Source: Caldisericia bacterium (GTDB taxonomy: Bacteria > Caldisericota > Caldisericia > JAAYUI01). From it: DNA of 64,000 nt. Location: NCBI GenBank assembly GCA_040768585.1, contig JAXGMQ010000001.1:1159299-1223298 (forward strand), read 5' to 3'. This document shows positions 2 to 49,485 of this stretch, one piece after another. The translations under genes and the position numbers were made by a program. Under the pieces are notes generated by a model. That model was not told where the DNA came from. It did no database searches and worked only from the letters and a program-made list of their open reading frames with translations. Position 1 is the stretch's first letter; each line of letters opens with the position of its first letter.

Positions 2-3000
2 AAACTCAATGCGTATGACAACCCAGACGATGTAAACGACCCAGAAGGCTACACAATGGCCGTCGCGCCAACTGACGCAAACGGTCAGAACCATATTGGT
101 GTTGCGACCTACAACGTGAATGGTGCAGGTATCAGGTACATGGCAACAATCCGTTACTGGAATATGCCACACACAGTTGACCAGGATGCCTACTTTATTC
201 TTCAGGTAAACGATGATGGTTCATGGCTCGGATGGAACTGGGGAGAGACAAACTACCCAGGTATTATTGACCCAACAGACGTGATTCAGCCATTCACGGT
301 CTACCCATTTGGTCGAGATCTGAATAACAGAGGAAGTGACGCTCACGACGTTGGCGACAACGATTGTTCAGTCGGTACAGGAACAGTAGACCTTTGTGGT
401 TCAGGATTCCCGCCTCTTGGCGATGTCACATTCTACGACACATATGGTCCAACGTTCTGCGACCCGCAGTGGGGAACACCACCATACTACGGTATGGTGT
501 ATCACTACGGTGTCAGAACCCTCATTTCAGCCAAAACGGCAACAGAAGAGGGCGGAACGATTGCTGTTGTTTGCCAGCCAATGCATGCGAAAGACAAACT
601 CAACATTCGTGTACATACTTCCAACATGGTTGTTGACTACAACAGTTCAAGCATCAAGGTTGGAAACAACGCTGTGTACTTCACAACTGACAGAGCAAAC
701 CTCTTCCAGGCAAGTGATGGCACAATTGCAAACAATCAGTACGACCCGAGTATGACGCTTGGCTACGCCGCAAACCCACCAGGAGTCAGAAACCTTCCAT
801 GGGTTGAGACGGTAGATTATTGTGATGTTATCTCGCTCAAGGTACTTCCACCAGATTCAGATTTGAACTTTAACAACTTCTATATTGTCGACCACGCTCT
901 CCAGTACAGCGAAGTGTCCTACACCGGTGCGCAGGGTTCAGGAGCTCTTGTTGAACTCAACACACCAGACAGATGGATCACCCCAAGATACAACCCACTC
1001 TGCGTTCTTAGACCACTTTCACATGATGAGAACACAGACGTGAGATGTTATCCTGGTGGACAGACACACCTCATAAGAGTTGAAAACTCGATGAGAGGTG
1101 CTGGATATAACGCAACACCGGCCCTTTGGAGGAAGCAGTTCAATAAACTCGGTTCAGAGTTCTATGGACTCACCGACTACGGTATGTTCTTCGAGCTTAC
1201 AAATGAGGATTATGGTTATTGGGGTGTGCCATTAACGTTCGCATCGGGACTCGTGAAGAGACTTGAGATAACCGGACCGTTCATGACGCCACTTGACCTC
1301 GATCCAGAGTTCTCGTCCATCAAGTATCGCTCTGGTACCGCGGCTGGCTCAGCACTTGGTTACTCATACAAGGGTCTCAGATTTGTCCCAATTAAGTATG
1401 ACTACAGCGGACAGATTATTGTAGATAGACTCAACTACCTCGCCTACGAGCTTGGTCAGAGAAACTACACATATATCACAAGCCCTGGATGCACAACAGA
1501 AGGCGACTTCGTCCAATTCTCAGGAAGCGTTAACCCATATCTCAACATCGGCAAAGAGCTCGATTACAGGTATGTCACAAGACCAACTATAAACGGACGC
1601 GCCATGAGAGTCCTTGTATTTGATGAACTCATTCCGATTGGTCCTGGTAGAATCGATATTACTGTCTGGCTTACGGACGGAACAAAGAAGATATTCCAGG
1701 ATTGCTGCGTTGAGCCACCAGCCAATGGAGTTGATGTTGCTGGTATCAAGATTGAGGGTATGCCTCACATGATTACTGTTGATGAGGAAACAATACTCAA
1801 ACTCAAGCTCACAGAAGGTTATGGAATTGAATCCGAGGGCCCGCCGCCAGAGTATGGCAAGGGAATCCAGGAATACAGAGAATGTAACGATGCTCTCGTC
1901 TATGTGTGGCAGGATAGAGGTATCTTCGATCCAGTGGAGAAGCTTTATTCGTTCGCTGGTGATGGCTACTGCTCAATGGCTCCACAGTCGACAGACTACA
2001 CGGACCTTGGTGTTGCCTACACAGAGGACGATGACCTCAACAACGATAGCAAGATTTCGTTTGACGCTTTTGAAACTGAAATCATGGGTTCATATGACCT
2101 TGCAACCAACACATGGGTCGGTGGTCTTATTGATGCGAGAACGTTCCACCGACAGAATGGCGAATACATCTTCAGTCTTTCAGGTGCTGCAATGCCAACT
2201 ACAGTTGGTATTGACTTTGGCTCGAAGGGAATTGAAGCTGAGCCGGACCACGTTATCGGTGACGACGAAACACTTGATATTCACGTAACTGCCTACAAGT
2301 ATGGCGACGACAACAACAGCAGATCGTTCAGACCGTTCTGGGGTGGCAGAGAAATAAACACAGAGAGAGCTTTCAGCCACGAAGTTTACCTTGCAGGTCA
2401 GAAATCAGCTTATGTCGAAGCCAAAGAAGACCTCATGGCAACTGTAACACCGGCCGTTCTTACTGCTGGTTGTACACCTGAGCTTATTGATCCAACTGCG
2501 CCGCTAACATTTGAGGTTAAGTGGCCAGATGGCACACCACTTGATCTTTCGGTTGGTGTTGAGGATCCACTTGGTGGTGATGAGGTTAAGATTGACGATG
2601 CATGGATCCATCTTTTCAAGGATCCGCATCCAGACGACCAGTACTATTACCCGGGTGAGTTACTACCACAGTACTATTGGCTAAGGACTGATCTTCATAA
2701 TGAAGACTTCTCCCAAATTGGTAATACCAGGATGTACTCTTTCAACAGATATCCGTTCCTACCGATTACGTTTGGTTGGAACCCAGCCGAAGGTGTGTAC
2801 GTTTTCAAGGGATTTGCTGCGAATGACAAGGGTAGTTTTGACGTGCACATTTATTCACCAGATAGAAGACACAAGGCGATTGCCGAGATTGTTGTAGAAT
2901 CACCAATTGTCGACTATGAGATCTCACCACGGGATTTCTATACGAATGCTGGTAAGGACCCGCTGTATGACACCGGTTCCGACGACGATTTTGTGATGAC

Positions 3001-5443
3001 AGGTGCTGATTTCAAGTGGTACTTTATCACTGCAACAATGAAAACTGCTGAAGGCAACCTTATACAGGGTCTTGCGGAGTCAACCTCCACCTGCTTGGGT
3101 GGCGAGGGTATGAATGCAAGGTTCACACCGTTCTACACGAGAGAAGAGCATTACAACTGGGTCACACCACCATCAGCGACTCTCCAGAGTAGAAGGCGCT
3201 ATTCCGGTCACGCCGCTGTCTATAACTATTACCTGAGTGACTCTAGAGGTAGTAGAGAGAGACAGATAATGCTTGCTGACCTGAATGGAAACGGTACCTT
3301 CGGTGATCTTCCTGAAGAGTTCCTTATCTTTGGTAGATCAGATTACTCAGACCTGGGTATTAGAGTTGGTGGAAAGACCGGTCCTGGAGCTCCATTCTAC
3401 CCGACAGTGAACTCAAGGTTTGATGATGAGACATACAACTATTGGAACTCATGGGATGGTCCATTTGACAAACCATCAGCTGGCCCAGCAGGATATGGTG
3501 TAGGATCGATATACAACGATGAGAAGGAAGGACTCTATGTGTTTGCTGATTCAAACAGAGACTTCCAGTTCACATACCAAGATTCGTTCAATATCGACAA
3601 TAGAGGTCAGGGTACTTTTGCATACTTTGCCGATGACAAGTGTAAAATCGGAGTCATGATTGGTGTGACAGATCATGCAATGACACCAAAATTTGGTGAT
3701 ATTTACGGTGGATCAGACCCATACACAGAGTTCTCTCCGCAGAGAACAGCGACAAGATTTGTTCACATATTGACTGGAAATGAAGAGCTTGGAACCGGTG
3801 ATGGTGCCTATTCCCTTGATTGGGACGCAATTCCGGACAACGTCGTAAATGTTGAGTACATGAAGGTTGTGACGAAATGGGCGGAAACAAAGGAAGAAAT
3901 AAGCAAGGATATGCTCGATGCAGACAATTATGACCTTGCATACGGAGTTGAAAACCACATTTGGTTCGAGTTCTATCCAGCCGACAACAGAGACTTCGCA
4001 GTAACTAAAGATGCCCATGTGGCAGTAATGGCAGCTGGAGACGTGTTACATCCATGGGGTGGACCGAAATCAGAGTCATTCATTGTGGCTGACATAACAG
4101 CTTCCCCGATCAACCCAAGCGACAGAGTGGCGCAGCTTTATATCACACCAACTGGAACTGGTCCAGATGTTACGAGCTTGAGGGTTGTCGGAAGCAGATG
4201 CGAGAATACAGCTGACTATGCAAGGTACTTCTATGACAACTACACGACATGGGGTGCTGCAAACTTCGATGTGATTATGTCAATACAAATCGTTGTTGAC
4301 ACAATGGAAGCACTCAAGGTTGGAGTACCTGGAACATTGGTTGTAAGCGCGCTCAAGACAGCGGGTGGCGAGCCAATTGAAGGTGCAACAGTTCATATCA
4401 AGGGTGCCGGTGTCGAGGTCGAAAAGAAGACAAGAGCGGATGGTTCCGTTGAGTTCAATATCACCCCAACCGAGCGTGGCAGAATATTGGTCACCGCAGA
4501 GGCAGAGGGAATGAAGGGTGCTTATACAACAGCGTTCGTTGAGACTTACGTTGCACCACCAAAACTTGATCTTGACCCGATCCCAGCGATCGTCTCAACA
4601 GATACAGTAACAGTAAAAGGAAGAACAAACGAAGGCACGAAGATAACAGTGAATGGTAGACCTGTTTCAGTGTCTCAGGATGGAACCTTTACATACACAT
4701 TGAGACTTGAGCCTGGAAAGAACAGCGTAATCGTTGTTGCTACTAATTCGGTTGGTCAAACACAAACAAAGGTTGTTGATATTGAATCGAGGATGAAAGC
4801 ATCTGAGATTATCATCGACCCAGTAGGGGAATACTGTAACGTAACAAGCATAAGAATCCGTGGACATGTCGAGCCTGGCAACACTGTGAAGGTAACATCT
4901 GTAACACTTGGTAGAGAGTTTGATGCTATAGTGACGAATGACACATTCATCTGTGATATCGATGTTCAGGCTGGTGTAAATGAGATTACAGTTGTGGCAA
5001 CAGACTTGACGACAAATAAAGAGTCTGATCCGCTCAATGTGAGTTTCTACATTTGGACGAGAGTTGACGTACTGATGTATCTCAATGGCAATCAGATGAT
5101 TGTGGACTCAGTACCACAGAGGATTGATGTTCCACCAACTGAGATCAATGGTGTTACCATGATCCCATTCGATCCAATCGCCAACGCGTTTGGTATTGGT
5201 GTAGTACCTGCCGGAGATACGATAACAGCAACGTGGGGAACAAATACACTTATTCTCACTAGAGGAAACAGCAAGGCAGTTCTCAACAACGAGGCCGTTG
5301 ATCTTGTGACAGCCCCAGTAATTGAGAATGGCGCTTTAATGATTGCACTTGATGATGTTAAGTTGCTTAAAGACGTCAATGGTGATGTGGTAATTGACAT
5401 GATCGCTGCGTCTGGTCAGATTGTGATATCCAAGAAGTACTAG
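2..5443 (+). CDS. Giant secreted surface-protein paralog, C-terminal ~1810 aa; 5' end lies upstream of the window. Carries the family core motifs, Ig-like repeats and a C-terminal copper amine oxidase N1-like module.
   Basis: The frame is open from position 2. The first residues LNAYDNPDDVNDPEGY align with the FPNLxLxxYDxDNPxDVNDPAxIPIS motif found in the other giant paralogs. Downstream family motifs are present: YPGGQTH, IFQDCC, ECNDALVYVWQDRG, AYKYGDDNN, LPQYYWLRTDLHN, SHEVYLAGQ. The C-terminus has Ig-like TVNG/VVATD repeats and a VPxxxIAxAFG...GALMIALDD module resembling the CuAO-N1 stalk domain. Confidence 0.8.
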   Translation, partial: KLNAYDNPDDVNDPEGYTMAVAPTDANGQNHIGVATYNVNGAGIRYMATIRYWNMPHTVDQDAYFILQVNDDGSWLGWNWGETNYPGIIDPTDVIQPFTVYPFGRDLNNRGSDAHDVGDNDCSVGTGTVDLCGSGFPPLGDVTFYDTYGPTFCDPQWGTPPYYGMVYHYGVRTLISAKTATEEGGTIAVVCQPMHAKDKLNIRVHTSNMVVDYNSSSIKVGNNAVYFTTDRANLFQASDGTIANNQYDPSMTLGYAANPPGVRNLPWVETVDYCDVISLKVLPPDSDLNFNNFYIVDHALQYSEVSYTGAQGSGALVELNTPDRWITPRYNPLCVLRPLSHDENTDVRCYPGGQTHLIRVENSMRGAGYNATPALWRKQFNKLGSEFYGLTDYGMFFELTNEDYGYWGVPLTFASGLVKRLEITGPFMTPLDLDPEFSSIKYRSGTAAGSALGYSYKGLRFVPIKYDYSGQIIVDRLNYLAYELGQRNYTYITSPGCTTEGDFVQFSGSVNPYLNIGKELDYRYVTRPTINGRAMRVLVFDELIPIGPGRIDITVWLTDGTKKIFQDCCVEPPANGVDVAGIKIEGMPHMITVDEETILKLKLTEGYGIESEGPPPEYGKGIQEYRECNDALVYVWQDRGIFDPVEKLYSFAGDGYCSMAPQSTDYTDLGVAYTEDDDLNNDSKISFDAFETEIMGSYDLATNTWVGGLIDARTFHRQNGEYIFSLSGAAMPTTVGIDFGSKGIEAEPDHVIGDDETLDIHVTAYKYGDDNNSRSFRPFWGGREINTERAFSHEVYLAGQKSAYVEAKEDLMATVTPAVLTAGCTPELIDPTAPLTFEVKWPDGTPLDLSVGVEDPLGGDEVKIDDAWIHLFKDPHPDDQYYYPGELLPQYYWLRTDLHNEDFSQIGNTRMYSFNRYPFLPITFGWNPAEGVYVFKGFAANDKGSFDVHIYSPDRRHKAIAEIVVESPIVDYEISPRDFYTNAGKDPLYDTGSDDDFVMTGADFKWYFITATMKTAEGNLIQGLAESTSTCLGGEGMNARFTPFYTREEHYNWVTPPSATLQSRRRYSGHAAVYNYYLSDSRGSRERQIMLADLNGNGTFGDLPEEFLIFGRSDYSDLGIRVGGKTGPGAPFYPTVNSRFDDETYNYWNSWDGPFDKPSAGPAGYGVGSIYNDEKEGLYVFADSNRDFQFTYQDSFNIDNRGQGTFAYFADDKCKIGVMIGVTDHAMTPKFGDIYGGSDPYTEFSPQRTATRFVHILTGNEELGTGDGAYSLDWDAIPDNVVNVEYMKVVTKWAETKEEISKDMLDADNYDLAYGVENHIWFEFYPADNRDFAVTKDAHVAVMAAGDVLHPWGGPKSESFIVADITASPINPSDRVAQLYITPTGTGPDVTSLRVVGSRCENTADYARYFYDNYTTWGAANFDVIMSIQIVVDTMEALKVGVPGTLVVSALKTAGGEPIEGATVHIKGAGVEVEKKTRADGSVEFNITPTERGRILVTAEAEGMKGAYTTAFVETYVAPPKLDLDPIPAIVSTDTVTVKGRTNEGTKITVNGRPVSVSQDGTFTYTLRLEPGKNSVIVVATNSVGQTQTKVVDIESRMKASEIIIDPVGEYCNVTSIRIRGHVEPGNTVKVTSVTLGREFDAIVTNDTFICDIDVQAGVNEITVVATDLTTNKESDPLNVSFYIWTRVDVLMYLNGNQMIVDSVPQRIDVPPTEINGVTMIPFDPIANAFGIGVVPAGDTITATWGTNTLILTRGNSKAVLNNEAVDLVTAPVIENGALMIALDDVKLLKDVNGDVVIDMIAASGQIVISKKY

Positions 5444-5652: not shown

Positions 5653-8600
5653 ATGAGAAGAACAATAGTAATGCTGATCGCAGCTGCTATGATCTCGGGT
5701 ATATTCACTCAACTCCTTCCGATGCAGTCGGTTGGTGCAGAGGTAGTCCAGGATGGCAATCAACATGCGACTATTATTTTGTCAAACTGGCACATGGTGG
5801 GTCATGACGAGTATGGTGACCCGCTTTCGGGTGGCAAGTCATTTCCCTGGCAACATGAGGGGGAAAGTGTAGACTCTTATTGGGGTTCCGATGACTATGG
5901 AATGCCAAATGCAGTCAGCGCAATCACAACAGCTGGCGTTGCCCGAGCGGCTAGAAGACAAAATTATGGAATGACAACAACACCCATGCTCTGGACAACG
6001 GTTTATTTGACCATTGTCGCAGATGATGGTGGTTCGAGACCAATCATAGATGAGAAGGGCGATCTTGAGGGTCTTGGCAGGTGGTATGTTATCATGGATT
6101 CAGCTGGACAGGTTTGGTTTGACCCAGACGGAAGATTCCATGATTCGAGATATCTTGCCCAGGCAGATCCATTTTCACCATACTATATGTACATAGAGGA
6201 TGAGGATGGGAACGCTTTTGGAGCATGTCTTGAGAATCCAACTGCAAAAGTAGATCCCTCTGAGATGAATAACACTCAGGGACCATACCAGTTCTCACCA
6301 ACGACAGAGTCGGGTGAGGAGAATCCATTCTATGTCGAGCCGTGCTACTTTTGGATTAGACCAAATCTCACAAAGATAGTCAATGCTGAGGCTGAAAATA
6401 CATGCGACGCCTACTCAAACCACACACTCAGAGGCGAATCGAGAGCGTGGCAACTCGGTATTGCGTCCAGACCTGACTATCTCGCACAAAATGTCATGAG
6501 CCCATTTGGCAACGTCTCCGATGGTCTTGTTAGAGAAGGTGAGTGGGATATTGGAGTATCGCTGCTTCCTTTCATGCCAAATGAGCAATACACTGACAAC
6601 TATCAAGGCAATGGTACTGCTGGCACTTTCGATTCTACTGACTACATTTACAGGAACGTAAACTATCCAGCTGGTGGACCGCCATACGCGGTTGAACCTG
6701 GCGACGTTAGACTTACAAGCGTCACTGTCGGGATTGCCCCAAACACAAACACATTCCTTGCCGGCTCTGTTGTTCAGCCAAGCGACCTGGATGTTGGTGA
6801 ACCTCTCAATGCAATTCCGACCAATATTAGGTACGCTATCAGTGAAGTTGGCGAGGCAGCCGCAGAGCTTGAGCACCGCAACCTTGGTGCATTGAACCCA
6901 GCCGGTTGGTCAACTGTCTCGACAATGGGTACCACTGTCCTATCCCTGACTGACGTCTCAAACCTTACAGCGGGATCAGCTATCCAGATTGGACCAAACG
7001 ACGCCGGGCAGTCTGATATTTGCAACGTTGTCGCAATAATCAATACCGCACCAGCATATAACCAGTACTACACATACCTATCAGGACATTGTCCTGGTGG
7101 ATACGAGCTTTCGGCTTACGCCTACTACGTCAATGGTTCATTCAATCCGGGTGACTACATAGTATATGGCAGAGGTGCAACAAGCGAGATATTCCGTCTC
7201 GACTGGGTCAACTGGTACGGATATTATCCGAACTACATGGGTTACTGTTATGCTTATTCATCGTACACAGGTTTTGATCTTGATAGACCGCTCTACTTCA
7301 ACCATGCATATGACAATCTTTACAACCTTTACTATTCACAGGATACAATAACAAAGATTGACCAGGGTGTAGTTCTCGATTGTGCTACTCTCTACGACTA
7401 CGAAGCAGGAACACCAATCACAATCCTTGGTTATCAGCCAGGAGATTTCATCTACAGACAGCTTGATCCAAATGAGGCAAACGTAGCGATCGGTGACATC
7501 AGACTCAGTAACGTCGACGGTCACAGAATTGACGGCTTCCAGATGGGTCAGGGTGCGTATGAGTTCGATGCCCTTGTCATGAATGAAATCCTCTTTGCAG
7601 ACCCCAACGACCCACGCTATCAGGGAATGGTCAGAAACAGTGACTGGCACAAGTCAGATTTCGACTTCAACATTCAGAGCACGGTCGAAGAGGAATCGGT
7701 TGAGTTCCCATACGGTGCTTGCATGCCGACATACGACATCTCCGTGGAGTCAGACTTCTGGCAGGGAGAGCGTGTGTGGCGCACAAACAGTCAGGGCCAG
7801 TGGGAATCTGAGTGGCAAGGTGTTATCCCATCAGTCACTGCTTGTGCTCTTCGCTCACCCAACGACGATGTTGATGATGCACATCACAGAATAGCAAAAC
7901 AGACTGTTCTTGGACCATACGGCGACTCATTCTTCATTCACACAGCAACGATTCATAATGTTCAGCCAGACTACAGAGAATACCTTGGTATCGAGATTTT
8001 CTGTGATAATGGTTATGATAACCTCTCCAATCCAAACCCGGCGGGTGTGGGTGCTGTCGCACTTGACCTCAACGACAACTATATGAGGGGAACCGTTTGT
8101 GAGCCATACGTTGGCGCAACAAGCAGGGCTCCAGACCTTGACCTTAACAGAGACCTCGTAGCTCTTGATGGTTCGACAGACAATCCAAAGTTTGTTGATA
8201 CTGACAACCTGGCTCCAGTTCCAGACGGTCCTGGTAACTATGGTTGCAATGAGCCAATTTACTTTGATATGGATGATGACGGATTTGTCTCACCTGGTGA
8301 TAAGCGTGGGTCATCCGTGCAGATGAACGCTGGCGCCACTATGGATGGTATTGTACTATTCTTCGAGGTAAACAGTATCGTCCAGCAGGGAGACAGTGAT
8401 GTTGGCAGAATCCTTTCAAGATTCCGTGATCCACTAACCAATGAGCCGGTTTACAAGTACTATGACAACCCACATGCAATCTCAAGACTTCCATCGGGTG
8501 TTTGGGAGTATGGCGAGAACATCTACTGGGATCACCCAGAACCACCAGATTTCCCAGGTGGAGACGGAAGGACTGACCCGGGTGACATCAGACTTACTGA

Positions 8601-11600
8601 TGTTAATATTGGTGGAACGTCCTACTTCTGCGGTGAGACGGTCGGTATTGGTGATGTTTTTGCACTTGAGTATCCAGTGTACATGATTTCTACCGGCAAG
8701 AACGGCGACTATAACTACATGGATTTCCAGGTTCTTCCGTTCCCGACAATGGACGTGAAGGTTGATATTGACAAGCCTCTCAAGGTTGAACAGACCAGCA
8801 ATATCACGATTGAGGTCAACCCCCCGCCAGCTCCTGGTGAGTCCATCTTTGTTGCTCTTCGCGAAACAACGATTGAGCCGAGAATGCCAATGCCAGCAGT
8901 GCAGTTCTATAGCATGGAGAATGTTACGGGTGATTGGCTTACCTACGAGTGTGATGGTCAGGTGCTTGATGCTGGTCTATGCCCATGGACACCGGGTGGT
9001 GGTTATTACCATGTCGCACTTCCTTGGCCGTTTGAGTTTTTTGGTCAGACCTATACGTCGGTTGGTGTTAGCTACGATGGCTACATCGATATGAGTGATC
9101 AGTACAACTACCTAAGCTCGATTTGGCTAAATTACTGCTGGAGTCCACCGCCTTATCAGTACAACTATGGTAGGCTCCCCGCAAATCTTCCAGATACGGG
9201 TAGACCTCCTCGAATTCATTCGCTCCTTACATGGTGGGATTCAGATGAGGTTTGCTGGGGTGACGCGATTTGGCCAGCTACAGGTGAGACCGTATTTGTT
9301 GTGACCTGGCGTGGTGAAAATGGTGGATACTACTACTACAGGAGAGGCGAGCGGCTCGAGGCGCAGGTCGTTCTCTTCAGCAATGGTCAGATTCTTATCC
9401 AGTACAAGCAGACGGAGTGTCCATATTACTGGATGTATTCGTACTATGGTTATGATCACTACATAACCGGTATCACTAATGGCTCTGGTGTCTATTACGA
9501 ATGGGATCCGGGTGCTCCTTGCGCATTTGGCATGGAAGCTAACGTTCTGTTTACGCCAGGTGAAATCCCAGCAAAGGCTGGTGTTCCAAAGGTCAACATC
9601 GCAGAGGATGCGAAGTGGATGACCCAGGACAACCCGGTTGCAAGCTTTGAGTTTACACCATACAGAGGTACGTGTCTCGAGGACGGTACAAGGAAACCGA
9701 TGGAGATAAACCTCTACAGGGATGCTGGTGGACTTTCCGAGCCAGTGCCAAGAAACCCGCCACCAAACACATATCTCACATATCAGGAGCCTTCATTCTC
9801 AACAAGGCCTCCGATTCCAAATGGCAGAGTGATAGCGATTGGTAATCCGTTTGGCTATCTTGAAGGTGATTGGATTCTCATTGGAAATTCAACGAACTCT
9901 GAGAGAAGAAGAATTGAGCAGATTCATGTTGGAACTGAGGGCGCGAGCACAGAAGTCCTCTATCAGACATACAGATCGACTCAAGCGCTTCCGTCCTACC
10001 ACATACCTGTCAGGAGCGTGAAGGACTTCACAATTGGTAATCCTGTTATTGTAGGACATAGTCATACGGGCAACCAGGAGACTCATATTATTGAGGGTCT
10101 CTCCAGAGGAGATGTCAGCCCTGGCGAACCAAGCTTCTGGTCGACAGGAATCAGATATCCTTATCCGCAGGCCGGAACGAATGTGACACTTCTTGTTAAC
10201 AATGCGTCAGGATTCCAGATTGGTGACTACATTGGATACGGTTACACTAATGGCTGGTGGAATGCAAATCCGATCAATAACGGAAGAGACATTGCCAAGA
10301 TCATCGACATCGACTATGGCGCAAATTCGCTAACACTCGACGTCATCCATACGTATTGGTACTACTATAACTACTACGTTTGCACGATTGAGGCTGTCGA
10401 AGTCCGCGATCCATTGAAGTTCGTCCACTATGGTGATGCGACATCGCCATACGGTGAGGCAGAGCCTGTATTTACCACGAAGTTTGCATTCACGTTAAAC
10501 CGTGGCCTGAACTACGATCATTACTTTGGTGAGCCAGTAATCGGAATGCAGTACTTCGACCCATTCTGGGCTGACAACAAGTGGGGAAGATTCGATCTTG
10601 ATATGTACCCATCACGTCAGTTTGCTGCAGTCCTACCACCAGATGACGTATCGCCAGATCTTGACAGTGGCTACGATTGCTACTGGCGTGGCAGGTTTAA
10701 CATCGCACCAGAAGAGATCGTTATTGACCCAGAGAGAGACTGTTTACACGTTCTTGACACGAGATTTCCGAATGTCCTTCTGAATCTTTACGATGCCGAT
10801 AACCCCAACGATGTGAATGATCCCGCTAACATACCAATCTCATGTCCTGGTGGTGTTTCGGGTGTCGATCAGACAATCATCGCAAACGTCAACGCGACAG
10901 GCGCAGGCGTTAAGTACCTGATGACCGCTGGGCAGTCCAGCCCGCCAAGATACATTGTTCAGGTCAACGATGATGGTACGTATGAGTGGTGGCGTTGGTA
11001 CGAGCCGCTTGCTGCAACACAGATTTTCGGTGCTCTCGATCCGAATGACTGGCTGTACAGATGGCTTGATATGGATGTGCTTAACTTTGTGAACCCGGCG
11101 ACCAGGTCACCTCTCCCAGTTCATGACAACACCTATGAACTGAGACTCACCGATAATGACTGCTCGAAGGGTGGCGGTGTTTGCGACCCGTGTAACAACG
11201 GCACACTGTGGCCATGTCTTGGTGACATCACAATCAATGATGCATATGGAAGATTTATGGGTACAATTTCTGATCCATACTCCAACTACCCGAACCCACA
11301 GCCACTCCCAGCAAACTTTGGAAGAATCGAAAACTTCGGCATTCCATGTGTTATTGACAGATGGACACTTGGTTCTGACGGTGGACAAATCATGTTCCCA
11401 GTCAAGCCTCTCAAGGGTGGCACGCTTAATATTAGAGTTTATACCTATCAGGCAGTCTTTGACTACAATTCATCCAACATCCATGCACCTGGACCATACT
11501 TCACAGAAGACACCTCATATGGTATCGACTACTGTGGTTACTATCAGATGAAGGTTATCGAGAAGGATGCTGATGTTAACTTCATCGAGTTTAGAATGGT

Positions 11601-14600
11601 TGACCACGCGCTTCAGAATTCAAGACTCAACTACACAACAGGTGTTAATCCGCTCTACCCAATGCCATCACCAGCCCCGAGGATTCAGAGGTCTTACGAT
11701 CCAATCATCAGAGACTATGGCAGACAGCTCAGAAGTTACCCTGGCGGACAGACACATACCGGTAGGCTCACAGGTGGAGCGATTGGTAATGGTAACCGCT
11801 GGAATGCATACCCAGCAATCTGGGAAAACATGTACGTCAAACTTGGAACCGAGTTCTATCCACTCACCGACTATGGTATGTACTTCTTCCTGCTTAATGG
11901 TGACGGAAACCACATCGGTTGGCCAGGAATGAGAGACTCAGCTCAGGAGCCAAACCTCGCAGTAAGATATATGAGAATCAAGGGTCCGTTTATGAGACCT
12001 AAGTATTATTATGAGCCGTCGTTGAACTGCGTACTTGGTGGTTCAGACAGCCCGTGGTATGAGTACAATAATGTCCTTGGTCTTCCAATCTCCTATGACT
12101 ACTCAGGACAGATTGATGTTGACCCATCGAACTTCGGTGCTTACTGTCCAGGTGGCGGAGCTGACCTTTCGCAGATTGGTAACCCATCCTCATCGACAGA
12201 CAGCTTTACGTATAAGAATGCCAACACTTGGCTTACAAAATGGAAAGATCTCTACTACGGTGGATTCTGGCAGGTATCAAGATCCAACTTCAATGCCCCG
12301 GTCGCTGACCCAGTAACTCCTTGCTATCCATACCTCTGGGTATTCGACGAGATTATTCCTGTAAGCTCTGGTGACATCACGATTGAGCTCGAGCTTATGA
12401 ATGGCGTCAAGAAGGTATATCAGGATTGCTGTGTGGCCGAGCTTGAGGGAACTAAAGACGGAATCCCAGTGCATGGTCTCAAGATAGAGGGTGCCCCGCA
12501 GTACGTTACGGTGGATGATGACAACGTGTTCGAACTCACAGTAACCGAAGACACCGGCAAGGGCATGCTCAACAACGACGAGTGGCTCAACATCGAGTGC
12601 AATGATGCTGTCCTCTTCGCATGGCAGGATAGAGGTGTTGTCGATCCAGGATCAAAATACTGGCTTGGACCACTAGATGGTCAGATAACGATGCCACCAA
12701 TCTCATCAGACTTCTCGAATGTTGAGTATGCGTACGAGTTGGTCGCTGATGTTAACGATGACAATAAAGTCTCGTACGAGGATTGGGAGACTGAGATTGT
12801 CGGAACATATGACATGGCAACCAACACATGGCTTGGTGGTATGATTGACGCCAGGACATTCCAGAGAGAGAACGGTCAGTACAAAATCGAACTCACAAAG
12901 GAATGGGGAGCCCAGATTGATGTTGTTGGTATTGATATTGGCGGCGTCGATGAAAATGGAAGACCGCTTCTTCGTAATCACGTCGACCACATTGTTGATG
13001 AGAACGAGCTTGTTCCACTCAACATCACCGCCTACAAGTATGGCGACGACAATAATGACAGAGCCTTTACACCTCTCTACGACCAGGTTCTCTCAACAGG
13101 CTACTCGCACGAGGTATATCTCGCTGGACAGGTTACGATTGGTGTAGAACCAAAACGTGACCTCAGTGTGACCTATGGGCCAGAGCCGTTGACTGCTGGT
13201 GTCATTCCAGAGAAGCTAGGCGATCCACTTACACTCTACGTGACCGATTACAATGGTGAGCCAGTTAATTTGACGATGGGTATGGCTGATGCTCATGGTG
13301 ACTATGAGGTAATCGGCGAAAACATCTGGAGAAATCTGTTCAAAGACCCGCACCCAGATAATGAGTACTACTATGGCAATGGTGTAGTCCTTCCGCAGTA
13401 CTATTGGATGAGAACAGACCTTCATAACGATCCAGACTCGATAACGAATATCTGCAATACAGGTATGTACAACTCGTTCTTCCTTCCAATCAAGTTTGGT
13501 ATGGATGCAGAAAAGGGTGTTTACAGCTTCAGCGGATTTATTGCAAACGATAAGGGCGATTTTGAGATCTACGTTTACACGCCAGATCGCAGGCACTCAG
13601 GTGTCGTGACAGTCAAGGTCGTTAACCCAACTGTCACATATGAAATCGTCAACAAGGATGAAATAAACACTATCTTTGATGTGCCATCCACAACGGATGA
13701 CCCAGACTTTGTCATGACAGCCGGTGACAACAGAGCATACATCGTTACGGCGACATGCCGTAATGCTCAGGATGCTCTGCTCAAGGGCGTTGCGAAAGGC
13801 GTCTCTGTCTGTTCTGGCCAGGGTGAGGACATCGCGAGATTCACACCGTCAATGACTGTTCTTAATAACTTCTGGTATCAGGGTTACTACTACAACACGA
13901 TCGGCGTTGACTTCAACAATGATGGCGCACTTACATCACCATCCATAGCGCAATCTGAGTTTGCAGAAGTGAAACCAATTGCAGATGCGATCTACTATAA
14001 CACGCACATGACCAGATACACCGATGGAAGCTATGCTCTTTGGCTCTACACGGGCGCTGATTCATGGTATCCAGGACCATTGAACTATATGTGGTTCCTA
14101 GACCGAAGGAATGAGTCTCAGTTCCTTTCACCACCGAGATCGTTCGGACTTGGTGCAATCTACAACGACTTGTATCATGGCACGTATATGTTTGCCGACC
14201 TAAACGGTGACAACTCAATTTCATTCAGAGACTCGCTGTCACTTGACGAACAGGGAAGAACAACCTTCTATGTCTACACAGACGATGCATGTTATCTGAC
14301 GGGTCTTGTTGGATACAACGACTATTGTAACGTTTCGATGTACGCAGACGTTGCTGGATATCCATCCTACTATACCGAGTACGACCCGAATTACTCGAGG
14401 TACAGATACCCAAGAAACTTCGCTGATGGAGTGTATGCTCTTGATTGGGAAGCATGGGCAGACACGGAGCTTGAGATTGGCACACCAAGGATTGAGATTA
14501 TTGAGCCGCTTTCTGGTGAGGAGTGGCGCAAGGATCTCCTTGATGAGAACTATTATGATCTCGTTTACGGTGTTAAGAATCACATGCTTGTCAGAGTTTA

Positions 14601-16050
14601 CCCAGCCGATATGAGAGACCTTCCAATAGCTGAAGAAACAGTTATCGGTTACTCAGTTGCTAGGAAAAGCGGTACCGGCGCTGCTCCAGCGTTTGAGACG
14701 ACGGTTATGGCAAGACTTGTCGAAAGTGAAGTCGATCCGAGCGCAAGAGAAGCGAATCTCTATGTTGATCCAACAGGTACTGGCTCATACCAGGCCGGTC
14801 TGTATATGAGAAACGAGAGAAAGAATACGTTCAACCCAATGATTCTCCCAACATTCTCACAGAATCTTGCTCTCACTGTGTTTGATGTGGTAAAAGGAAT
14901 GGAGATAATTCCTGAGGTCGCAGGCGCTCTTAAGGTTGGACAAGAAACGACCCTTTCAATCAAGGTCGTAGTTGCTGGTGGAGCAAATGAACCACTCGAA
15001 GGAATTAGTGTAACTCTCGATGATGCAAACGGCGTTGTTGATTCAGTAACAGCAAAAACAAATGCCAAGGGTGTTGCTGAGTTCACAGTTACTCCAAAGA
15101 AAGCCGGAAGAATTGTTGTCAAGGCGACCTCCGATGTTTATGGCAAGGCATACAGCGCTGTCGGTGTTGAGGTCGAGGTCGTGCCGCCAATGCTCGTTGT
15201 CAACCCAGTCAAGTCAGTTACCAAGGAATCGAAGATTGAGATCACAGGTAAGACATCGATTGGCGTGGAAGTCGAGATAAACACTGAGAAGGTCAAGGTT
15301 GCGGACGATGGTACCTTCAAGCATAGCGTCAACCTGCAGGAGGGCTTCAATTCGATAGATGTTGAAGCTGTCAATTCGGTAGGAATGGCAACTAGTGTTG
15401 TTGTTAACGTAGTCAGAGACTCGACTCCGCCATCGATAATTCTTGACCAGAAGGACGTAGTCTTTGGTCCAACTATTACACTTACGGGTAAGGTTGAGCC
15501 GTACTCAGTTGTAACGGTCAACGGAGTCCCAGCAGAGGTTGTGTACGACAATTGGAGAGTTGAGCTTACAGACGTTGACAACGGAGCACTTGAAGTTGAG
15601 ATCAAGGCCACAGACCCCGCCGGAAATGAAAGCGAGCCATTCAAAGCGACACTCACAGTTGTCACAAAGAAAGAAATGGTTCTTCATGAAGGTTCAACCT
15701 CTGTCACAATCAATGGTGATGATCAGCGTGGACTCACGAGAGCCCCGTACGTTGATGGACTTAGTTTCATGGTTCCGGTGCAGGCGTTCTCCACTTTCTT
15801 TGGTAATGCTGGAGATCCAGTTGTGAATGGTGACGTTGCAACAGTGACAATCAACGGCATTTCCTTTGAGTTCACAAATGGCACAAAGCTCTACACCCAG
15901 GATGACACTGATTTTACAATGCCAAAAGAAGCGAAGCTTGAATTTGGCGTGATGTTTGTTGATGCTATTTATCTTGCCTCCACGCTTGGTCTTGAGACGA
16001 GCTGGAATGCAGGTAACAATGAGTTGAGAATATACGAGATTACGGACTGA
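5653..16050 (+). CDS. Giant secreted protein (3465 aa), paralog 2 of the tandem family. Signal peptide; N-terminal domain with repeated Ca-binding-like loops; conserved Cys-motif core; Ig-like repeats; CuAO-N1-like C-terminus.
   Basis: A single uninterrupted 10.4-kb ORF. An AAAGGAGAGGT RBS sits 7 nt upstream of the ATG. The N-terminus is hydrophobic (MRRTIVMLIAAAMISGIFTQLL...A-EVV). It shares GQVWFDPDGRFHD, NNTQGPY, YPGGQTH, VYQDCC, ECNDAVLFAWQDRG, AYKYGDDNNDR and LPQYYWMRTDLHN with the other giants. Confidence 0.88.
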   Translation: MRRTIVMLIAAAMISGIFTQLLPMQSVGAEVVQDGNQHATIILSNWHMVGHDEYGDPLSGGKSFPWQHEGESVDSYWGSDDYGMPNAVSAITTAGVARAARRQNYGMTTTPMLWTTVYLTIVADDGGSRPIIDEKGDLEGLGRWYVIMDSAGQVWFDPDGRFHDSRYLAQADPFSPYYMYIEDEDGNAFGACLENPTAKVDPSEMNNTQGPYQFSPTTESGEENPFYVEPCYFWIRPNLTKIVNAEAENTCDAYSNHTLRGESRAWQLGIASRPDYLAQNVMSPFGNVSDGLVREGEWDIGVSLLPFMPNEQYTDNYQGNGTAGTFDSTDYIYRNVNYPAGGPPYAVEPGDVRLTSVTVGIAPNTNTFLAGSVVQPSDLDVGEPLNAIPTNIRYAISEVGEAAAELEHRNLGALNPAGWSTVSTMGTTVLSLTDVSNLTAGSAIQIGPNDAGQSDICNVVAIINTAPAYNQYYTYLSGHCPGGYELSAYAYYVNGSFNPGDYIVYGRGATSEIFRLDWVNWYGYYPNYMGYCYAYSSYTGFDLDRPLYFNHAYDNLYNLYYSQDTITKIDQGVVLDCATLYDYEAGTPITILGYQPGDFIYRQLDPNEANVAIGDIRLSNVDGHRIDGFQMGQGAYEFDALVMNEILFADPNDPRYQGMVRNSDWHKSDFDFNIQSTVEEESVEFPYGACMPTYDISVESDFWQGERVWRTNSQGQWESEWQGVIPSVTACALRSPNDDVDDAHHRIAKQTVLGPYGDSFFIHTATIHNVQPDYREYLGIEIFCDNGYDNLSNPNPAGVGAVALDLNDNYMRGTVCEPYVGATSRAPDLDLNRDLVALDGSTDNPKFVDTDNLAPVPDGPGNYGCNEPIYFDMDDDGFVSPGDKRGSSVQMNAGATMDGIVLFFEVNSIVQQGDSDVGRILSRFRDPLTNEPVYKYYDNPHAISRLPSGVWEYGENIYWDHPEPPDFPGGDGRTDPGDIRLTDVNIGGTSYFCGETVGIGDVFALEYPVYMISTGKNGDYNYMDFQVLPFPTMDVKVDIDKPLKVEQTSNITIEVNPPPAPGESIFVALRETTIEPRMPMPAVQFYSMENVTGDWLTYECDGQVLDAGLCPWTPGGGYYHVALPWPFEFFGQTYTSVGVSYDGYIDMSDQYNYLSSIWLNYCWSPPPYQYNYGRLPANLPDTGRPPRIHSLLTWWDSDEVCWGDAIWPATGETVFVVTWRGENGGYYYYRRGERLEAQVVLFSNGQILIQYKQTECPYYWMYSYYGYDHYITGITNGSGVYYEWDPGAPCAFGMEANVLFTPGEIPAKAGVPKVNIAEDAKWMTQDNPVASFEFTPYRGTCLEDGTRKPMEINLYRDAGGLSEPVPRNPPPNTYLTYQEPSFSTRPPIPNGRVIAIGNPFGYLEGDWILIGNSTNSERRRIEQIHVGTEGASTEVLYQTYRSTQALPSYHIPVRSVKDFTIGNPVIVGHSHTGNQETHIIEGLSRGDVSPGEPSFWSTGIRYPYPQAGTNVTLLVNNASGFQIGDYIGYGYTNGWWNANPINNGRDIAKIIDIDYGANSLTLDVIHTYWYYYNYYVCTIEAVEVRDPLKFVHYGDATSPYGEAEPVFTTKFAFTLNRGLNYDHYFGEPVIGMQYFDPFWADNKWGRFDLDMYPSRQFAAVLPPDDVSPDLDSGYDCYWRGRFNIAPEEIVIDPERDCLHVLDTRFPNVLLNLYDADNPNDVNDPANIPISCPGGVSGVDQTIIANVNATGAGVKYLMTAGQSSPPRYIVQVNDDGTYEWWRWYEPLAATQIFGALDPNDWLYRWLDMDVLNFVNPATRSPLPVHDNTYELRLTDNDCSKGGGVCDPCNNGTLWPCLGDITINDAYGRFMGTISDPYSNYPNPQPLPANFGRIENFGIPCVIDRWTLGSDGGQIMFPVKPLKGGTLNIRVYTYQAVFDYNSSNIHAPGPYFTEDTSYGIDYCGYYQMKVIEKDADVNFIEFRMVDHALQNSRLNYTTGVNPLYPMPSPAPRIQRSYDPIIRDYGRQLRSYPGGQTHTGRLTGGAIGNGNRWNAYPAIWENMYVKLGTEFYPLTDYGMYFFLLNGDGNHIGWPGMRDSAQEPNLAVRYMRIKGPFMRPKYYYEPSLNCVLGGSDSPWYEYNNVLGLPISYDYSGQIDVDPSNFGAYCPGGGADLSQIGNPSSSTDSFTYKNANTWLTKWKDLYYGGFWQVSRSNFNAPVADPVTPCYPYLWVFDEIIPVSSGDITIELELMNGVKKVYQDCCVAELEGTKDGIPVHGLKIEGAPQYVTVDDDNVFELTVTEDTGKGMLNNDEWLNIECNDAVLFAWQDRGVVDPGSKYWLGPLDGQITMPPISSDFSNVEYAYELVADVNDDNKVSYEDWETEIVGTYDMATNTWLGGMIDARTFQRENGQYKIELTKEWGAQIDVVGIDIGGVDENGRPLLRNHVDHIVDENELVPLNITAYKYGDDNNDRAFTPLYDQVLSTGYSHEVYLAGQVTIGVEPKRDLSVTYGPEPLTAGVIPEKLGDPLTLYVTDYNGEPVNLTMGMADAHGDYEVIGENIWRNLFKDPHPDNEYYYGNGVVLPQYYWMRTDLHNDPDSITNICNTGMYNSFFLPIKFGMDAEKGVYSFSGFIANDKGDFEIYVYTPDRRHSGVVTVKVVNPTVTYEIVNKDEINTIFDVPSTTDDPDFVMTAGDNRAYIVTATCRNAQDALLKGVAKGVSVCSGQGEDIARFTPSMTVLNNFWYQGYYYNTIGVDFNNDGALTSPSIAQSEFAEVKPIADAIYYNTHMTRYTDGSYALWLYTGADSWYPGPLNYMWFLDRRNESQFLSPPRSFGLGAIYNDLYHGTYMFADLNGDNSISFRDSLSLDEQGRTTFYVYTDDACYLTGLVGYNDYCNVSMYADVAGYPSYYTEYDPNYSRYRYPRNFADGVYALDWEAWADTELEIGTPRIEIIEPLSGEEWRKDLLDENYYDLVYGVKNHMLVRVYPADMRDLPIAEETVIGYSVARKSGTGAAPAFETTVMARLVESEVDPSAREANLYVDPTGTGSYQAGLYMRNERKNTFNPMILPTFSQNLALTVFDVVKGMEIIPEVAGALKVGQETTLSIKVVVAGGANEPLEGISVTLDDANGVVDSVTAKTNAKGVAEFTVTPKKAGRIVVKATSDVYGKAYSAVGVEVEVVPPMLVVNPVKSVTKESKIEITGKTSIGVEVEINTEKVKVADDGTFKHSVNLQEGFNSIDVEAVNSVGMATSVVVNVVRDSTPPSIILDQKDVVFGPTITLTGKVEPYSVVTVNGVPAEVVYDNWRVELTDVDNGALEVEIKATDPAGNESEPFKATLTVVTKKEMVLHEGSTSVTINGDDQRGLTRAPYVDGLSFMVPVQAFSTFFGNAGDPVVNGDVATVTINGISFEFTNGTKLYTQDDTDFTMPKEAKLEFGVMFVDAIYLASTLGLETSWNAGNNELRIYEITD

Positions 16051-19066: not shown

Positions 19067-22000
19067 TTATAATGGCTACCTCTCTTACTTATCCTCAGCG
19101 CTTGTTTGGTATCGTGGTCCAGACACAGATGGCAGAGATGTTTGTACAGATCCATATTGGACAAACTATGCCTTCAACTACCAGCTTCTCTGCGAGGACT
19201 ACAGAAGATATACTTCGTACGAGAAGTATGTAGGTATGGGCTCAGTTCTTATGGATCATTCTGGAAATGGATATGGTCAGCAGTACTACTACAGCCAGAA
19301 TAACAGGTCGTACTACGGACTTCACAGTGCTTCTAACCGATGCAGGATGCATTTCTTCCGCTGGGAGTACATGCCTCACCCAGAAAACGGTGGACCGTAC
19401 TCTCGTGCTATTCCGATCGCTTACTTTGATCCACCATCATCTGGTGACCTTCTTGCCTTTAATACTCTCTATGATGTGAGAACCACTGTCTTTGGTGGAC
19501 AGTGGAATGTCGCGATGTCACCTGACATCTGGAATGGCGACATCACAGTCAACCTTGTTGGAGGAAACACGTTTGGTTCGGTTGGTTTCTCGCATGGTCA
19601 ATACTACAACTACTACCATAACTACTACGGTGTTGATGCATACTTCGACAATGCTGAAGCATACATAATCGAGGTTGTTCCAAGTGCTGGTGACAGAAGA
19701 CGTCTCACGCTTGGCGGTCACCATGTTGGTTTGAACAAGCATGTCTACAGAAAAGACGATGTTAACTACTCAACATCGAGTGCGAGCGCTTCTGCACTTA
19801 CTCCATTCAGCCACTACTACCCATGCGGATCGAAACTTGCCGCTGGTGAGCTTTATGACATCGAATCCGTTGTCTCAATGGTCACGATGGGCAAATGTGG
19901 TGATCCACGATTCATGGATATCCCAGTGCTTCCTGGCGAAGTTGACCTCAAGGTCTCAATAGATGGAAACCCTGTATCGGAAGAAGATGAGTTCCACCTT
20001 AAGGTAGAGCAGACATCAGACATCCAGCTCTCAGTTGATCCACCACCACAGCCAGGCGAGAAGTACGTCGTCAGAATGAGTGGCGTCTTCCAGGAAGGCT
20101 ATCCGGCACGTGAAGCCTACACCGACTATATCGAATCCAGAGAGAGCAACACATTCTCGGAGTTCTGCGAGGGTGAAGTCGAGTTTGACAAGGAAAACTT
20201 TAACGGCTCCCCATACCTAGATGACACATATACACAGGAGTTTGCACTGCCGTGGGACTTCCCGCTTTACAACAGGATAATCCCTGCCGGTACGACTTTG
20301 TATGTTGGCACAAACGGTCAGATCGTATTCGAGAGAAACTATGCCGGTTACATTCCAAGTACCTATGGTTGGTTCCATAGATATGGTTATCCAGACTATG
20401 CGATACTTGCTTGTGGCGATGACCTCGAGCTCTACGAAGCACCAAGCTATGGTCGTACAAACTACAATCTCCATATGTACTACTGCCAGCCAACACCTGA
20501 CTCCGTAAGGATCAGATGGGAAACCCAGATATATCCAGCTAATGAAAATGGGCCAGCAACCGTTAACTTCTACATCACTCTTTATCAGGATGGAACCATT
20601 AGATTCACTTATGGTGACATGTATGATACCCGAGGTAGCTATAGTACAGTTGTTTCTGGTATCAGTGGTGACATCTCAGAGGGTGAATACTACTATACCA
20701 TGTATCACAACATGGTAATGAACTCCCTCGCCTATGCCGATGATGTTGTTCTCACCCGTTTTGAGTTCCCACCAGACGAGGGAAGACCATCGGGCGGAAC
20801 AATCGATTCAGACTATATGATTGGCAGCACCACTGAAGCACCGCACAGCAATGAGATCGGTGGAGCACACTATAAGACAGTTGAGATCACTCCAGAGAAC
20901 CCAGTTCAGCATATTCAGTACACCCCGTACAGAGGTTCCGTCCAGGAAGATGGTTCTTGCGATCCAATCAAAGCTGAGGTATTCCTGGAGCGTGGTGGAG
21001 TTTCGTATCCAGTTCCGATGGATTCAGTACTCTCTGGCGAGAGGGTCGAAAGAGATGTCGAAGACTATGATGAACTCAACCTCTACGATTACAACATCTA
21101 CGATCCATACTGGGTTGTTAGGCCTTGGGTGCAGAAGATGTATGAAGGTCGTCATATGGGCGACCACACACCAAGACCAATCCCATCAACGGCTGGTATA
21201 CCAACTGCAAATTGCGCGCTCAATAACCAGTATGATTGCTATGGCATATTTGAGCTGATGGTTGAGCCAGAAGAACTCAGACTTGAGTTCTCAGATGCAA
21301 GCAGAACCTGCATCTCCCCGGTTGACCAGAGATTCCCGAACCTTATCCTCAAGGTCTACGATGGCGACAATCCAATTGATGTAAACGATCCAGCTGATAT
21401 CCCGATTTCCACTGTTGGAATGCAGCCGGGTGTCAGAGGCAAGATTGTTGCCAATGTTAACGCTTCTGGTGCTGGAATTAAGTACCTCTGCACAGCAGTA
21501 GGTAAGAGGACCGGTGATGTGGACGTTAGGTACATCATCCAGGTTAATACCGATGGTACATACACCTTCTGGCGTATGTACGAGCCAGCAACAGACAGAC
21601 CGGGCGCGGCGTTGGGTGTTCTTGACCCAACCGACTGGCTGTACTCAAACAGATATCCATACAACAACGTCTATGGCGAGACAAACAGGTCTTATAACCA
21701 GTCAAGATTGCCATGGACAGATACAGACGGCTGGTTGTCGGCAATCACTGGTGATTCAACCATTACCACAGAGCTTGAAGATTACGATTGCTCATTCGAC
21801 CATTCAATCTGCAGAGATGTTTGTAGACCAACGAATGATGGTTTCCCGAACCTTGGATCCGTGACATACAACGACAGAATCGGAAGATTCAACGGTTCGT
21901 ACTACGACAACGATTTATTCTTCAGCCAGAGAACAGGTGGAGCGCCGTTTGGTGTCATCGAGACGTTCGGTGTGCCAACCATGATCACAAACTGGGATAA

Positions 22001-40044: not shown

Positions 40045-40064
40045 TACAGAGAGAGACAGGGAAT

Positions 40065-49439: not shown

Positions 49440-49485
49440 GGTAATGTGGATGAAAGACACATTACCCAAAAAAAGAAGTGGAGGT

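Follow-up and report, generated by a model that had tools for sequence, protein, structure and literature searches.

An unannotated all-beta repeat with paired EF-hand-like loops, probably calcium-stabilised, in giant surface proteins of a Caldisericia bacterium

EF-hand-like calcium loops in non-helical contexts and calcium-rigidified beta repeats in adhesins are both well known. Galactose-binding protein carries an EF-hand-like Ca2+ site outside a helix-loop-helix, in dockerins each calcium loop is followed by an alpha-helix, and the integrin loop is nine residues long (DxDxDGxxD) and belongs to blades that close into a seven-bladed ring. The SdrD B-repeats or CnaB-type domains (PF17210) of Gram-positive adhesins are tandem all-beta units in which loops of the DxNxDGxxDxxE type are followed by a beta-strand and Ca2+ rigidifies the stalk. 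By the definition quoted in PMC4022735, an EF-hand-like site is a 12-residue loop that is not flanked by two helices, and such sites are established in the CHAP domain of LysGH15, in anthrax protective antigen and in dockerin (PMC4022735). Here we describe a repeat in giant proteins encoded by a 64,000-nucleotide stretch of a Caldisericia bacterium (contig JAXGMQ010000001.1, positions 1,159,299 to 1,223,298; hereafter the window, whose own numbering is used throughout). The first 36 kb of the window code for four paralogous giants, G1 to G4, all on the forward strand, with G3 present as two open reading frames (ORFs), G3a and G3b. The element in question is an unannotated all-beta repeat unit with two EF-hand-like loops, which, on balance, probably acts as a Ca2+-stabilised structural element of the extracellular head of these proteins.

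An earlier reading of this DNA, made from the sequence only, had reported dockerin-like loops with canonical EF-hand spacing in the N-terminal halves of the giants, each followed by a D(I/V)RLT(D/N)V strand, and had placed the finding at 8250–8620. These coordinates are right: they correspond to G2 amino acids (aa) ~866–990 and hold both the loop DMDDDGFVSPGD (8266–8301) and DIRLTDV (8584–8604), and the examples it cited in G3 (~17581–17670) and G4 (~29320–29390) check out as well. The strand motif recurs far above chance. The regular expression D[IVLM]R[ILVM][TSA]x[IVL] matched seven times in the 11,808 aa of the giants (G2 aa 351, 615 and 978; G3a aa 470; G4 aa 399, 501 and 741), against 0.07 matches expected and a maximum of two in 2000 shuffles of these residues, and the two-part pattern ExIY...DxRLTxV occurred eight times, against 0.01 expected by shuffling. 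Every motif match lies within the N-terminal thirds of G2, G3a and G4, and the regular expression found none in the C-terminal halves of the giants. When the N-termini of G2, G3a and G4 were aligned with two Caldisericia homologs, the motif fell at four positionally homologous sites, A to D, each preceded by Y-D-x-G-E-x-I-Y and, at sites A and C, followed by Y.AGS.V..GD.D.G..L. The strand motif is the conserved core of a larger repeat of ~65–70 aa that occupies four sites per giant in G2, G3 and G4. A hidden Markov model (HMM) of this unit, seeded from four proteins only (P0085, P0137, P0070 and P0069), all unrelated to the giants, and then iterated, recovered 11 of the 12 window copies (four in G2, three in G3a and four in G4) with E-values of 3e-4 to 3e-20. 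The recurrence at sites A to D was thus borne out for the strand motif, but a canonical loop does not accompany every copy.

In the family consensus, loop 1 occupies unit positions 4–15, with D4 (93%), D/N6 (69%), N/D/S8 (80%), G9 (53%), Y/F/W11 (85%), D12, G14 and E/D15 (87%), and its final residue is the Glu of GExIY. I17 and Y18 (95%) form the strand that separates it from loop 2 at positions 20–31, with D20 (72%), D/N22 (68%), S/D/N24 (73%), G25, V/I27 (90%), S/T28, G30 and D31 (95%), which ends in the Asp of GDxRLT and is followed by a strand with R33 (95%), L34, T/S35 and V37. Both loops are 12 residues long, their starts are 16 residues apart, and both match EF-hand positions 1, 3, 5, 6, 8 and 12 exactly, so that the consensus of either loop shows the canonical EF-hand pattern of ligands at 1, 3, 5 and 12, Gly at 6 and a hydrophobic residue at 8. 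The rest of the unit, its second half, comprises Y44, A46-G47-S/T48, V50 (95%), G53-D54-x-D56 (96%)-x-G58, L61 and F64. Neither this half (Y.AGS.V..GD.D.G..L..F) nor the second EF-hand-spaced loop, upstream and ending in the Glu of GExIY, had been noticed in the sequence-only reading. Taken from its start, the unit opens with the strand Y-x-D, after which come loop 1 (DxD/NxN/D/S-G-x-Y/F-D-x-G-E), the strand x-I-Y-x, loop 2 (DxD/NxS/D/N-G-x-V-S/T-x-G-D) and the strand x-R-L-T-x-V; these are followed by a hairpin, the strand A-G-S-x-V, the acidic turn GDxDxG and the closing strand L-x-x-F.

An AlphaFold2 model of G2 aa 580–1060 had a mean predicted local distance difference test score (pLDDT) of 62 and was confident for aa ~830–1000 alone. 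For the two-unit module formed by copies C and D of G2 (aa 825–1003), modelled with an alignment of 44 double-unit segments, the mean pLDDT was 90.3 and the predicted template modelling score 0.85; the model consists of short beta-strands only, has zero helices and shows that two units already make a compact module. The acidic loop at aa 872–883 lies between the strands PIY and KR with pLDDT 97–98, and the Asp-rich segment is accordingly modelled as ordered, not as the disordered linker that would have spoken against a conserved loop geometry. Fold searches with the C+D module against the PDB returned no neighbour. An RTX beta-roll was suggested neither by the unit consensus nor by the fold searches, although the GGxGxD nonapeptide itself was not searched for.

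The repeat extends well beyond the locus. A word-indexed homolog search with the G2 N-terminus found two homologs and one with the unit alignment gave zero matches, whereas the N-terminal alignment, used in an exhaustive HMMER search over 1.84 billion representatives, yielded 161 proteins at E<=1e-3. About 15 of these are full-length giants, and the sampled clusters are from Caldisericia metagenome-assembled genomes (MAGs) in which they are annotated 'stalk domain-containing protein'. Many of the 161 are otherwise unrelated proteins that match the site-C segment only, in 3–10 stretches each, and hold clean tandem arrays of the unit. With the HMM of the unit, which spans 73 columns, we counted 447 copies in 112 proteins, the 11 window copies included, at 3 to 12 copies per protein. 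Besides the Caldisericia giants, named members occur in Methanosalsum natronophilum (WP_259133849.1, a canonical tandem array with units at aa ~115–280), Methanosarcina sp. and Phycisphaerae (an S8 peptidase), and an Acidimicrobiia MAG gave one unit-like match; in other members, the unit is accompanied by an S8 peptidase, by fn3 domains or by a hydrophobic stretch at the C-terminus that resembles a membrane anchor. The Caldisericia giants (e.g. HQL68779.1 and HNY60677.1) are true homologs of G2 to G4, with 28–55% identity and the same plan of an N-terminal head with sites A to D and C-terminal immunoglobulin (Ig) and Cu_amine_oxidN1 domains; they are annotated from the C-terminal stalk domain only, and the N-terminal repeat is unannotated there too. 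The motif is therefore kept among orthologs and well beyond, as a check on the sequence-only reading demanded. Scans with Pfam and NCBIfam gave no model that covers the unit in the giants' N-terminal parts, in 51 unit copies or in the tandem-repeat relatives, and literature searches yielded nothing relevant on Caldisericum or Caldisericota surface or giant proteins, on EF-hand-like repeats of archaeal surface proteins or on DUF1888.

Family-wide, the consensus with its EF-hand-spaced acidic loops makes a calcium-binding repeat the best reading. Of the 185 copies that aligned in full, 71% have an intact loop 1 and 48% an intact loop 2; 29% keep both loops and 10% neither. The ligand positions of one loop are retained together (phi coefficients of 0.29–0.51 for loop 2 and 0.16–0.32 for loop 1), and retention is independent between loops (phi -0.14 to 0.14). 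Mean-field direct coupling analysis of 281 copies placed the pairs 18-33, 20-28, 33-56, 24-28, 22-28, 18-27, 18-56, 8-12, 18-50, 33-50, 27-50 and 20-31 at the top, with 19-32 lower in the list. These pairs are consistent with a hairpin around loop 2, closed between D20 and D31 in register i+j=51, with coupling among loop positions 1, 3, 5, 9 and 12, and with a core of Y18, V27, R33, V50 and D56. Judged from the alignment, co-retention and covariation would fit the signals expected of a metal site.

Copies in the window are more decayed than the family average. Scored at six positions (1, 3, 5, Gly6, 8 and 12), only three window copies reach 6/6 in loop 2, contrary to the claim that every copy has canonical spacing: G2-C with DMDDDGFVSPGD, where the next strand is degenerate (KRGSSV); G3a-A with DADSNGMFDDLD, followed by LRLIAW and preceded by the only near-canonical loop 1 in the window (DVNGNNLYDFGE, 5/6); and G4-C, which reads HEHLY, DMDSSGAISKGD and LRLTDV...YYAGTTVAAGDLDVGEPITYF. 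G3a-B has DQIY and then DVDGDDLVGPND, which scores 5/6, lacks Gly6 only, keeps ligands 1, 3, 5 and 12, and runs into VRITNI. The other loops cited in the sequence-only reading are degenerate or sit in expanded loops: G2-D combines GENIY, a 19-residue non-canonical loop (DGRTDPGD, score 3/6) and the DIRLTDV mentioned above; G4-B, with ALANSGMTVQADD, reads NGGGDGVYSPGEFIY...DDIRLTNV; and G4-A has GEFAY, a 29-residue loop and ADIRLSDI. The remaining window loops are non-acidic or expanded to 14–35 residues, as in G2-A (DYIY...GDVRLTSV...LAGSVV..DLDVGEPL, whose loops are non-acidic), G3a-C (GEPIY, a 31-residue loop, GDQRMLEV...YPAGSIVTDGDLDAGRIL), G4-D (GEDIY...RSVRATDV) and G3a-D (GELIYFD, a 35-residue loop, GGMRWNSS), the copy that the unit HMM fails to recover. 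Of ~19 Caldisericia giants, about half have a canonical site C and several a canonical site D, although the latter is degenerate in the window; among orthologs, strands are conserved and ligands patchily kept. Most window copies have no ligand set, which makes calcium binding unlikely for those copies and plausible, from the sequence pattern, only for the minority of loops that are intact.

Two copies appear to have taken up long segments. Between the first half of G2 unit B and its putative second half, at 7528–8124 (G2 aa ~626–824), lies a conserved domain of ~190 aa with the consensus GDALIM.EVL...SPNGD...RIQK.TVLDP...YREY.G.EIF.D.G.DNN and no Pfam match. When G2 aa 586–627 were joined to aa 813–850, the match to the unit HMM improved from 23.5 bits to 40.9 bits (HMM positions 11–66), and the domain is probably nested inside unit B, the second half of which would then lie at aa ~813–850; with the boundaries used, G4 and G3a showed no such gain. 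In P0003, another Caldisericia giant, loop 2 of site C carries an insertion of ~80 residues (DMDMETGIAGQ...GFGMISRGDVRLSDV), which indicates that loops of the repeat are able to host nested segments.

These features bring up the strongest competitor, a purely structural beta repeat without metal, in which the loops would be hydrophilic surface loops, D31, R33 and D56 would form salt bridges, and the loop spacing would be a by-product of hairpin geometry. We regard it as unlikely but worth serious attention, as several observations that weigh against calcium would suit it. Most window copies keep their strands without the ligand set, which is retained in 4/12 second loops and 1/12 first loops. 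Only 37–53% of family copies have Gly at loop position 6. D31 is 95% conserved even in degenerate loops, which points to a structural role beyond any metal site, and R33 is equally conserved whatever the state of the loop; both covary with D56. Long insertions are tolerated in the loops, and one of 80 aa is incompatible with an EF-hand loop in such copies. Moreover, co-retention and covariation could arise partly from wholesale loop replacement or from alignment effects, and the absence of a structural neighbour is valid for the PDB only. However, a repeat without metal does not lead one to expect that D-x-D/N-x-S/D/N-G-x-V/I-S/T-x-x-D/E should recur twice per unit across the family at an exact 12-residue spacing, that ligand positions should be kept together within loops and not between them, or that positions 1, 3 and 5 should covary with position 9. 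Spacing, co-retention and covariation of this kind are unexpected for arbitrary hydrophilic loops and count against that alternative, and the sub-threshold EF-hand and dockerin HMM matches fall exactly on the loops. The proposal of a Ca-dependent module in the sequence-only reading thus holds in that there is an unrecognised repeat with EF-hand-spaced consensus loops, but not for most copies in the window.

A role in which calcium, or the variable loops themselves, would touch prey, substrate or neighbouring cells, making the unit a Ca-dependent ligand- or glycan-binding repeat of the lectin or adhesin type, seems improbable to us. It would be in keeping with the position of the units in the distal N-terminal head of surface-anchored giants, with loops that vary more than any other part, in length as well as in sequence, when paralogs and orthologs are compared, and with the presence in the family of peptidase, beta-helix and fn3 modules, which are typical of surface proteins that bind substrates.

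We consider it very improbable that the unit is a dockerin-like module joining the giants to cohesin partners, or to the protein encoded at 37724..39283, in a cellulosome-like complex. The latter gene does encode a bona fide dockerin, as had been recognised (Table 1), the 12-residue loops of the unit can end in Asp, as in dockerins, and Dockerin_1 matched 3/51 unit copies below threshold (best E 0.004). But the model is free of helices, the strand x-I-Y-x joins the two loops, whose starts lie 16 residues apart, and an hhalign comparison of the unit profile with the locus dockerin gave 3% probability, with the 12-residue loop alone aligned. No cohesin domain was found in G1 to G4 at E<=0.1, and we reject assignment to the type I dockerins (PF00404). 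The 37724..39283 protein is not part of the repeat system, and nothing ties it to the giants. A beta-propeller made of unrecognised FG-GAP- or integrin-like blades with Ca-binding hairpin loops, the other structure suggested in the sequence-only reading, is hardly credible. The unit resembles integrin alpha blades in its ~65-aa length, all-beta nature and Ca-type loop closing a hairpin, but neither the giants nor the 51 units match an FG-GAP or VCBS HMM, no fold match to a ring of four-stranded blades was found, copy number ranges from 3 to 12 and two units already form a compact module.

For the preferred reading, a Ca2+-stabilised all-beta repeat, we propose the following. Intact loops would most likely chelate Ca2+ through positions 1, 3, 5, 9 and 12, as EF-hand-like loops do in non-helical contexts; the candidates in the window are loop 2 of G2-C, G3a-A, G3a-B and G4-C and loop 1 of G3a-A. 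With Ca2+ bound, the module would be stiffer, and the other window copies may be Ca-free relics or carry expanded loops and nested insertions. Y18, V27, R33, V50 and D56 would make up a covarying core, possibly with an R33–D56 salt bridge, and with such a core IY...DxRLTxV would survive where the acidic ligands are lost; this signature is the core of the fold, its scaffold, and not a metal site. The repeat would then serve as a structural or spacer element of the distal head, with anchoring left to the C-terminal Ig and stalk domains. An extracellular setting is suggested by the parts of G2, which has a signal peptide, the N-terminal head with four repeat units and, towards the C-terminus, Ig-like domains together with a Cu_amine_oxidN1 'stalk' domain. 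The C-termini of G1 to G4 all contain Ig-like domains (Glucodextran_B, Big_1/6/13) and the stalk domain; in G2, Pfam matches (Glucodextran_B, Big_1 and Cu_amine_oxidN1) are confined to aa 3099–3460, and Pfam and NCBIfam scans gave zero matches in the N-terminal ~1100 residues of each giant. More tentatively, the unit may be an undescribed all-beta 'twin EF-loop' fold that binds two Ca2+ per ~65 residues (possibly three, via GDxDxG), a Ca-rigidified scaffold whose loops host nested domains and which has spread over surface proteins of Caldisericota, Planctomycetota, Actinomycetota and methanogenic archaea.

Coordinates of the genes and repeat copies are collected in Table 1. From its alignment with the other giants, the G1 gene probably starts upstream of the window. 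G3a and G3b lie in different reading frames, and the G3 product aligns with the other giants across the junction. The split is reproducible, in that the gene upstream of G4 is likewise called short (2402 aa) in independent assemblies, and it could reflect a pseudogene, two genes or a programmed frameshift. Directly before the frame break, the tail of G3a (18770–19063, aa ~850–947) is a Tyr/Asn/Ser/Gly-rich low-complexity region (QYNGYGAYGQSGW...YSYNYSNSYPWANYIYNNTY), and a 943-aa homolog, P0009, has out-of-frame-looking sequence at its end, just past its site C. At 5740–6580 (G2 aa ~30–310, with equivalents in G3a and G4) lies an N-terminal domain, conserved and marked by the invariant motifs WFDPDG.F and NNTQGPY, which is common to all Caldisericia giants and to many short proteins and has no match in Pfam, NCBIfam or the PDB. 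The G4 protein recurs with identical sequence on at least 22 contigs of various metagenomes (ERZ795048, SRR5007151, JGI 3300009778), and the nearest species-representative genome, the Caldisericia MAG OY771555.1, shows only 62% identity over the C+D module. Downstream, at 39409–52220, the locus holds further surface-related genes. From ~52000 to 64000, G+C falls from 0.47–0.50 to 0.37–0.39 and GC skew turns strongly positive, which suggests a compositionally different segment.

Table 1. Giant genes, repeat copies and other genes of the window (strand as + or -; ECF, extracytoplasmic function; bit scores and E-values of repeat copies are from the unit HMM)
Feature	Position	Strand	Remarks
G1	56..5443	+	alignable to C-terminal ~1750 aa of other giants only
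G2	5653..16050	+	3465 aa; ORF and translation
G2 unit A (aa 323-395)	6619..6837	+	49.5 bits, E 3.2e-15
G2 unit B, first half (aa 594-625)	7432..7527	+	GDFIY...GDIRLSNV; 23.5 bits
G2 C+D two-unit module (aa 825-1003)	8125..8661	+	AlphaFold2 model; spans 8250-8620
G2 unit C (aa 858-926)	8224..8430	+	53.7 bits, E 1.6e-16
G2 unit D (aa 948-1001)	8494..8655	+	35.9 bits, E 5.5e-11
G3a	16223..19066	+	first ORF of G3; overlap with G3b at 18990-19066
G3a unit A (aa 365-424)	17315..17494	+	41.5 bits, E 1e-12
G3a unit B (aa 451-478)	17573..17656	+	23.7 bits
G3a unit C (aa 670-761)	18230..18505	+	47.4 bits, E 1.4e-14
G3a site D (aa ~768-845)	18524..18757	+	decayed copy; positional homology in alignment only
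G3b	18990..26975	+	second ORF of G3
G4	27149..35971	+	2940 aa
G4 unit A (aa 361-447)	28229..28489	+	14.2 bits, E 3.3e-4 (weak); positional homology
G4 unit B (aa 475-514)	28571..28690	+	29.5 bits, E 5e-9
G4 unit C (aa 713-785)	29285..29503	+	best window copy; 65.6 bits, E 2.8e-20
G4 unit D (aa 809-852)	29573..29704	+	ligands lost; 20.8 bits, E 2.7e-6
PQQ-like beta-propeller protein with C-terminal type I dockerin	37724..39283	-	PQQ_2 30.0 bits; Dockerin_1 23.0 bits (cut-off 22.9); two-loop dockerin sequence visible
ECF sigma factor	39409..40044
Unannotated ORF	40041..42326		761 aa; next after ECF sigma factor
Cu_amine_oxidN1 'stalk' protein	42323..44290
Cu_amine_oxidN1 'stalk' protein	44295..47477
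Family 2 glycosyltransferase	47481..49439
Mrr-like restriction endonuclease	49444..50406
Cu_amine_oxidN1 'stalk' protein	50547..52220	-	with NHL repeat

The repeat organises the ~1000 N-terminal residues, devoid of annotation, in each of these Caldisericia surface proteins of ~3000 residues, and it connects the giants with surface proteins of bacteria and archaea in which hundreds of such repeats are likewise unannotated. Should the loops bind Ca2+, they would provide a new all-beta context, with two loops per unit, for EF-hand-type sites and a candidate new fold, and calcium dependence or sensitivity to ethylenediaminetetraacetic acid (EDTA) would offer a handle on how these uncultured anaerobes build their surface; a twin EF-loop fold, if real, would deserve its own family entry and structure. 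In addition, a tempting wrong reading is removed, namely that of a cellulosome-like cohesin-dockerin system around the giants.

Set against the known systems, the unit departs first from the canonical EF-hand, a helix-loop-helix, which we reject because the modelled loops are flanked by short beta-strands with no helix. No EF-hand_1/5/6/7 match exceeded the gathering threshold; sub-threshold matches occurred in distant members and in 2–4/51 unit copies, with none for the window copies, and where EF-hand_1/5/6 and Dockerin_1 matched a few copies below threshold they covered the loop only. Integrin alpha and FG-GAP blades share with the unit an acidic Ca-type loop that forms the turn of a beta-hairpin in a ~60-aa beta repeat, but the unit has 12-residue loops, two per unit, a variable copy number and no propeller fold match. 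Type I dockerins likewise have two 12-residue Ca-type loops per ~65–70 aa, Asp at position 12 and a place in secreted proteins, whereas in the unit a beta-strand follows each loop. SdrD B-repeats and CnaB-type domains are, like the unit, tandem all-beta surface repeats with an acidic loop followed by a beta-strand; among the 51 units, however, the only Pfam match of this kind was one to SpaA_2 (E 0.058), and there was no fold match. There is a close likeness to the EF-hand-like sites of the LysGH15 CHAP domain and of domain 1 of anthrax protective antigen (PMC4022735), which have ligands at 1, 3, 5 and 12, a frequent Gly at 6 and a hydrophobic residue at 8, as the unit does; the sequence pattern of the unit and its modelled strand flanks conform to such a 12-residue, non-helical loop with ligands 1, 3, 5, (7) and 12. 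Those sites are structural or regulatory calcium sites of extracellular proteins in a non-helical context, and the unit is similar, with calcium binding predicted. It differs in that it is not a single site on an enzyme fold but has two loops, 16 residues apart, in a repeated beta unit of ~65 aa with a conserved core of its own (Y18, R33, V50, D56). What appears to be new is a repeat family, lacking a PDB neighbour, in which twin EF-hand-like loops are built around a core of their own.

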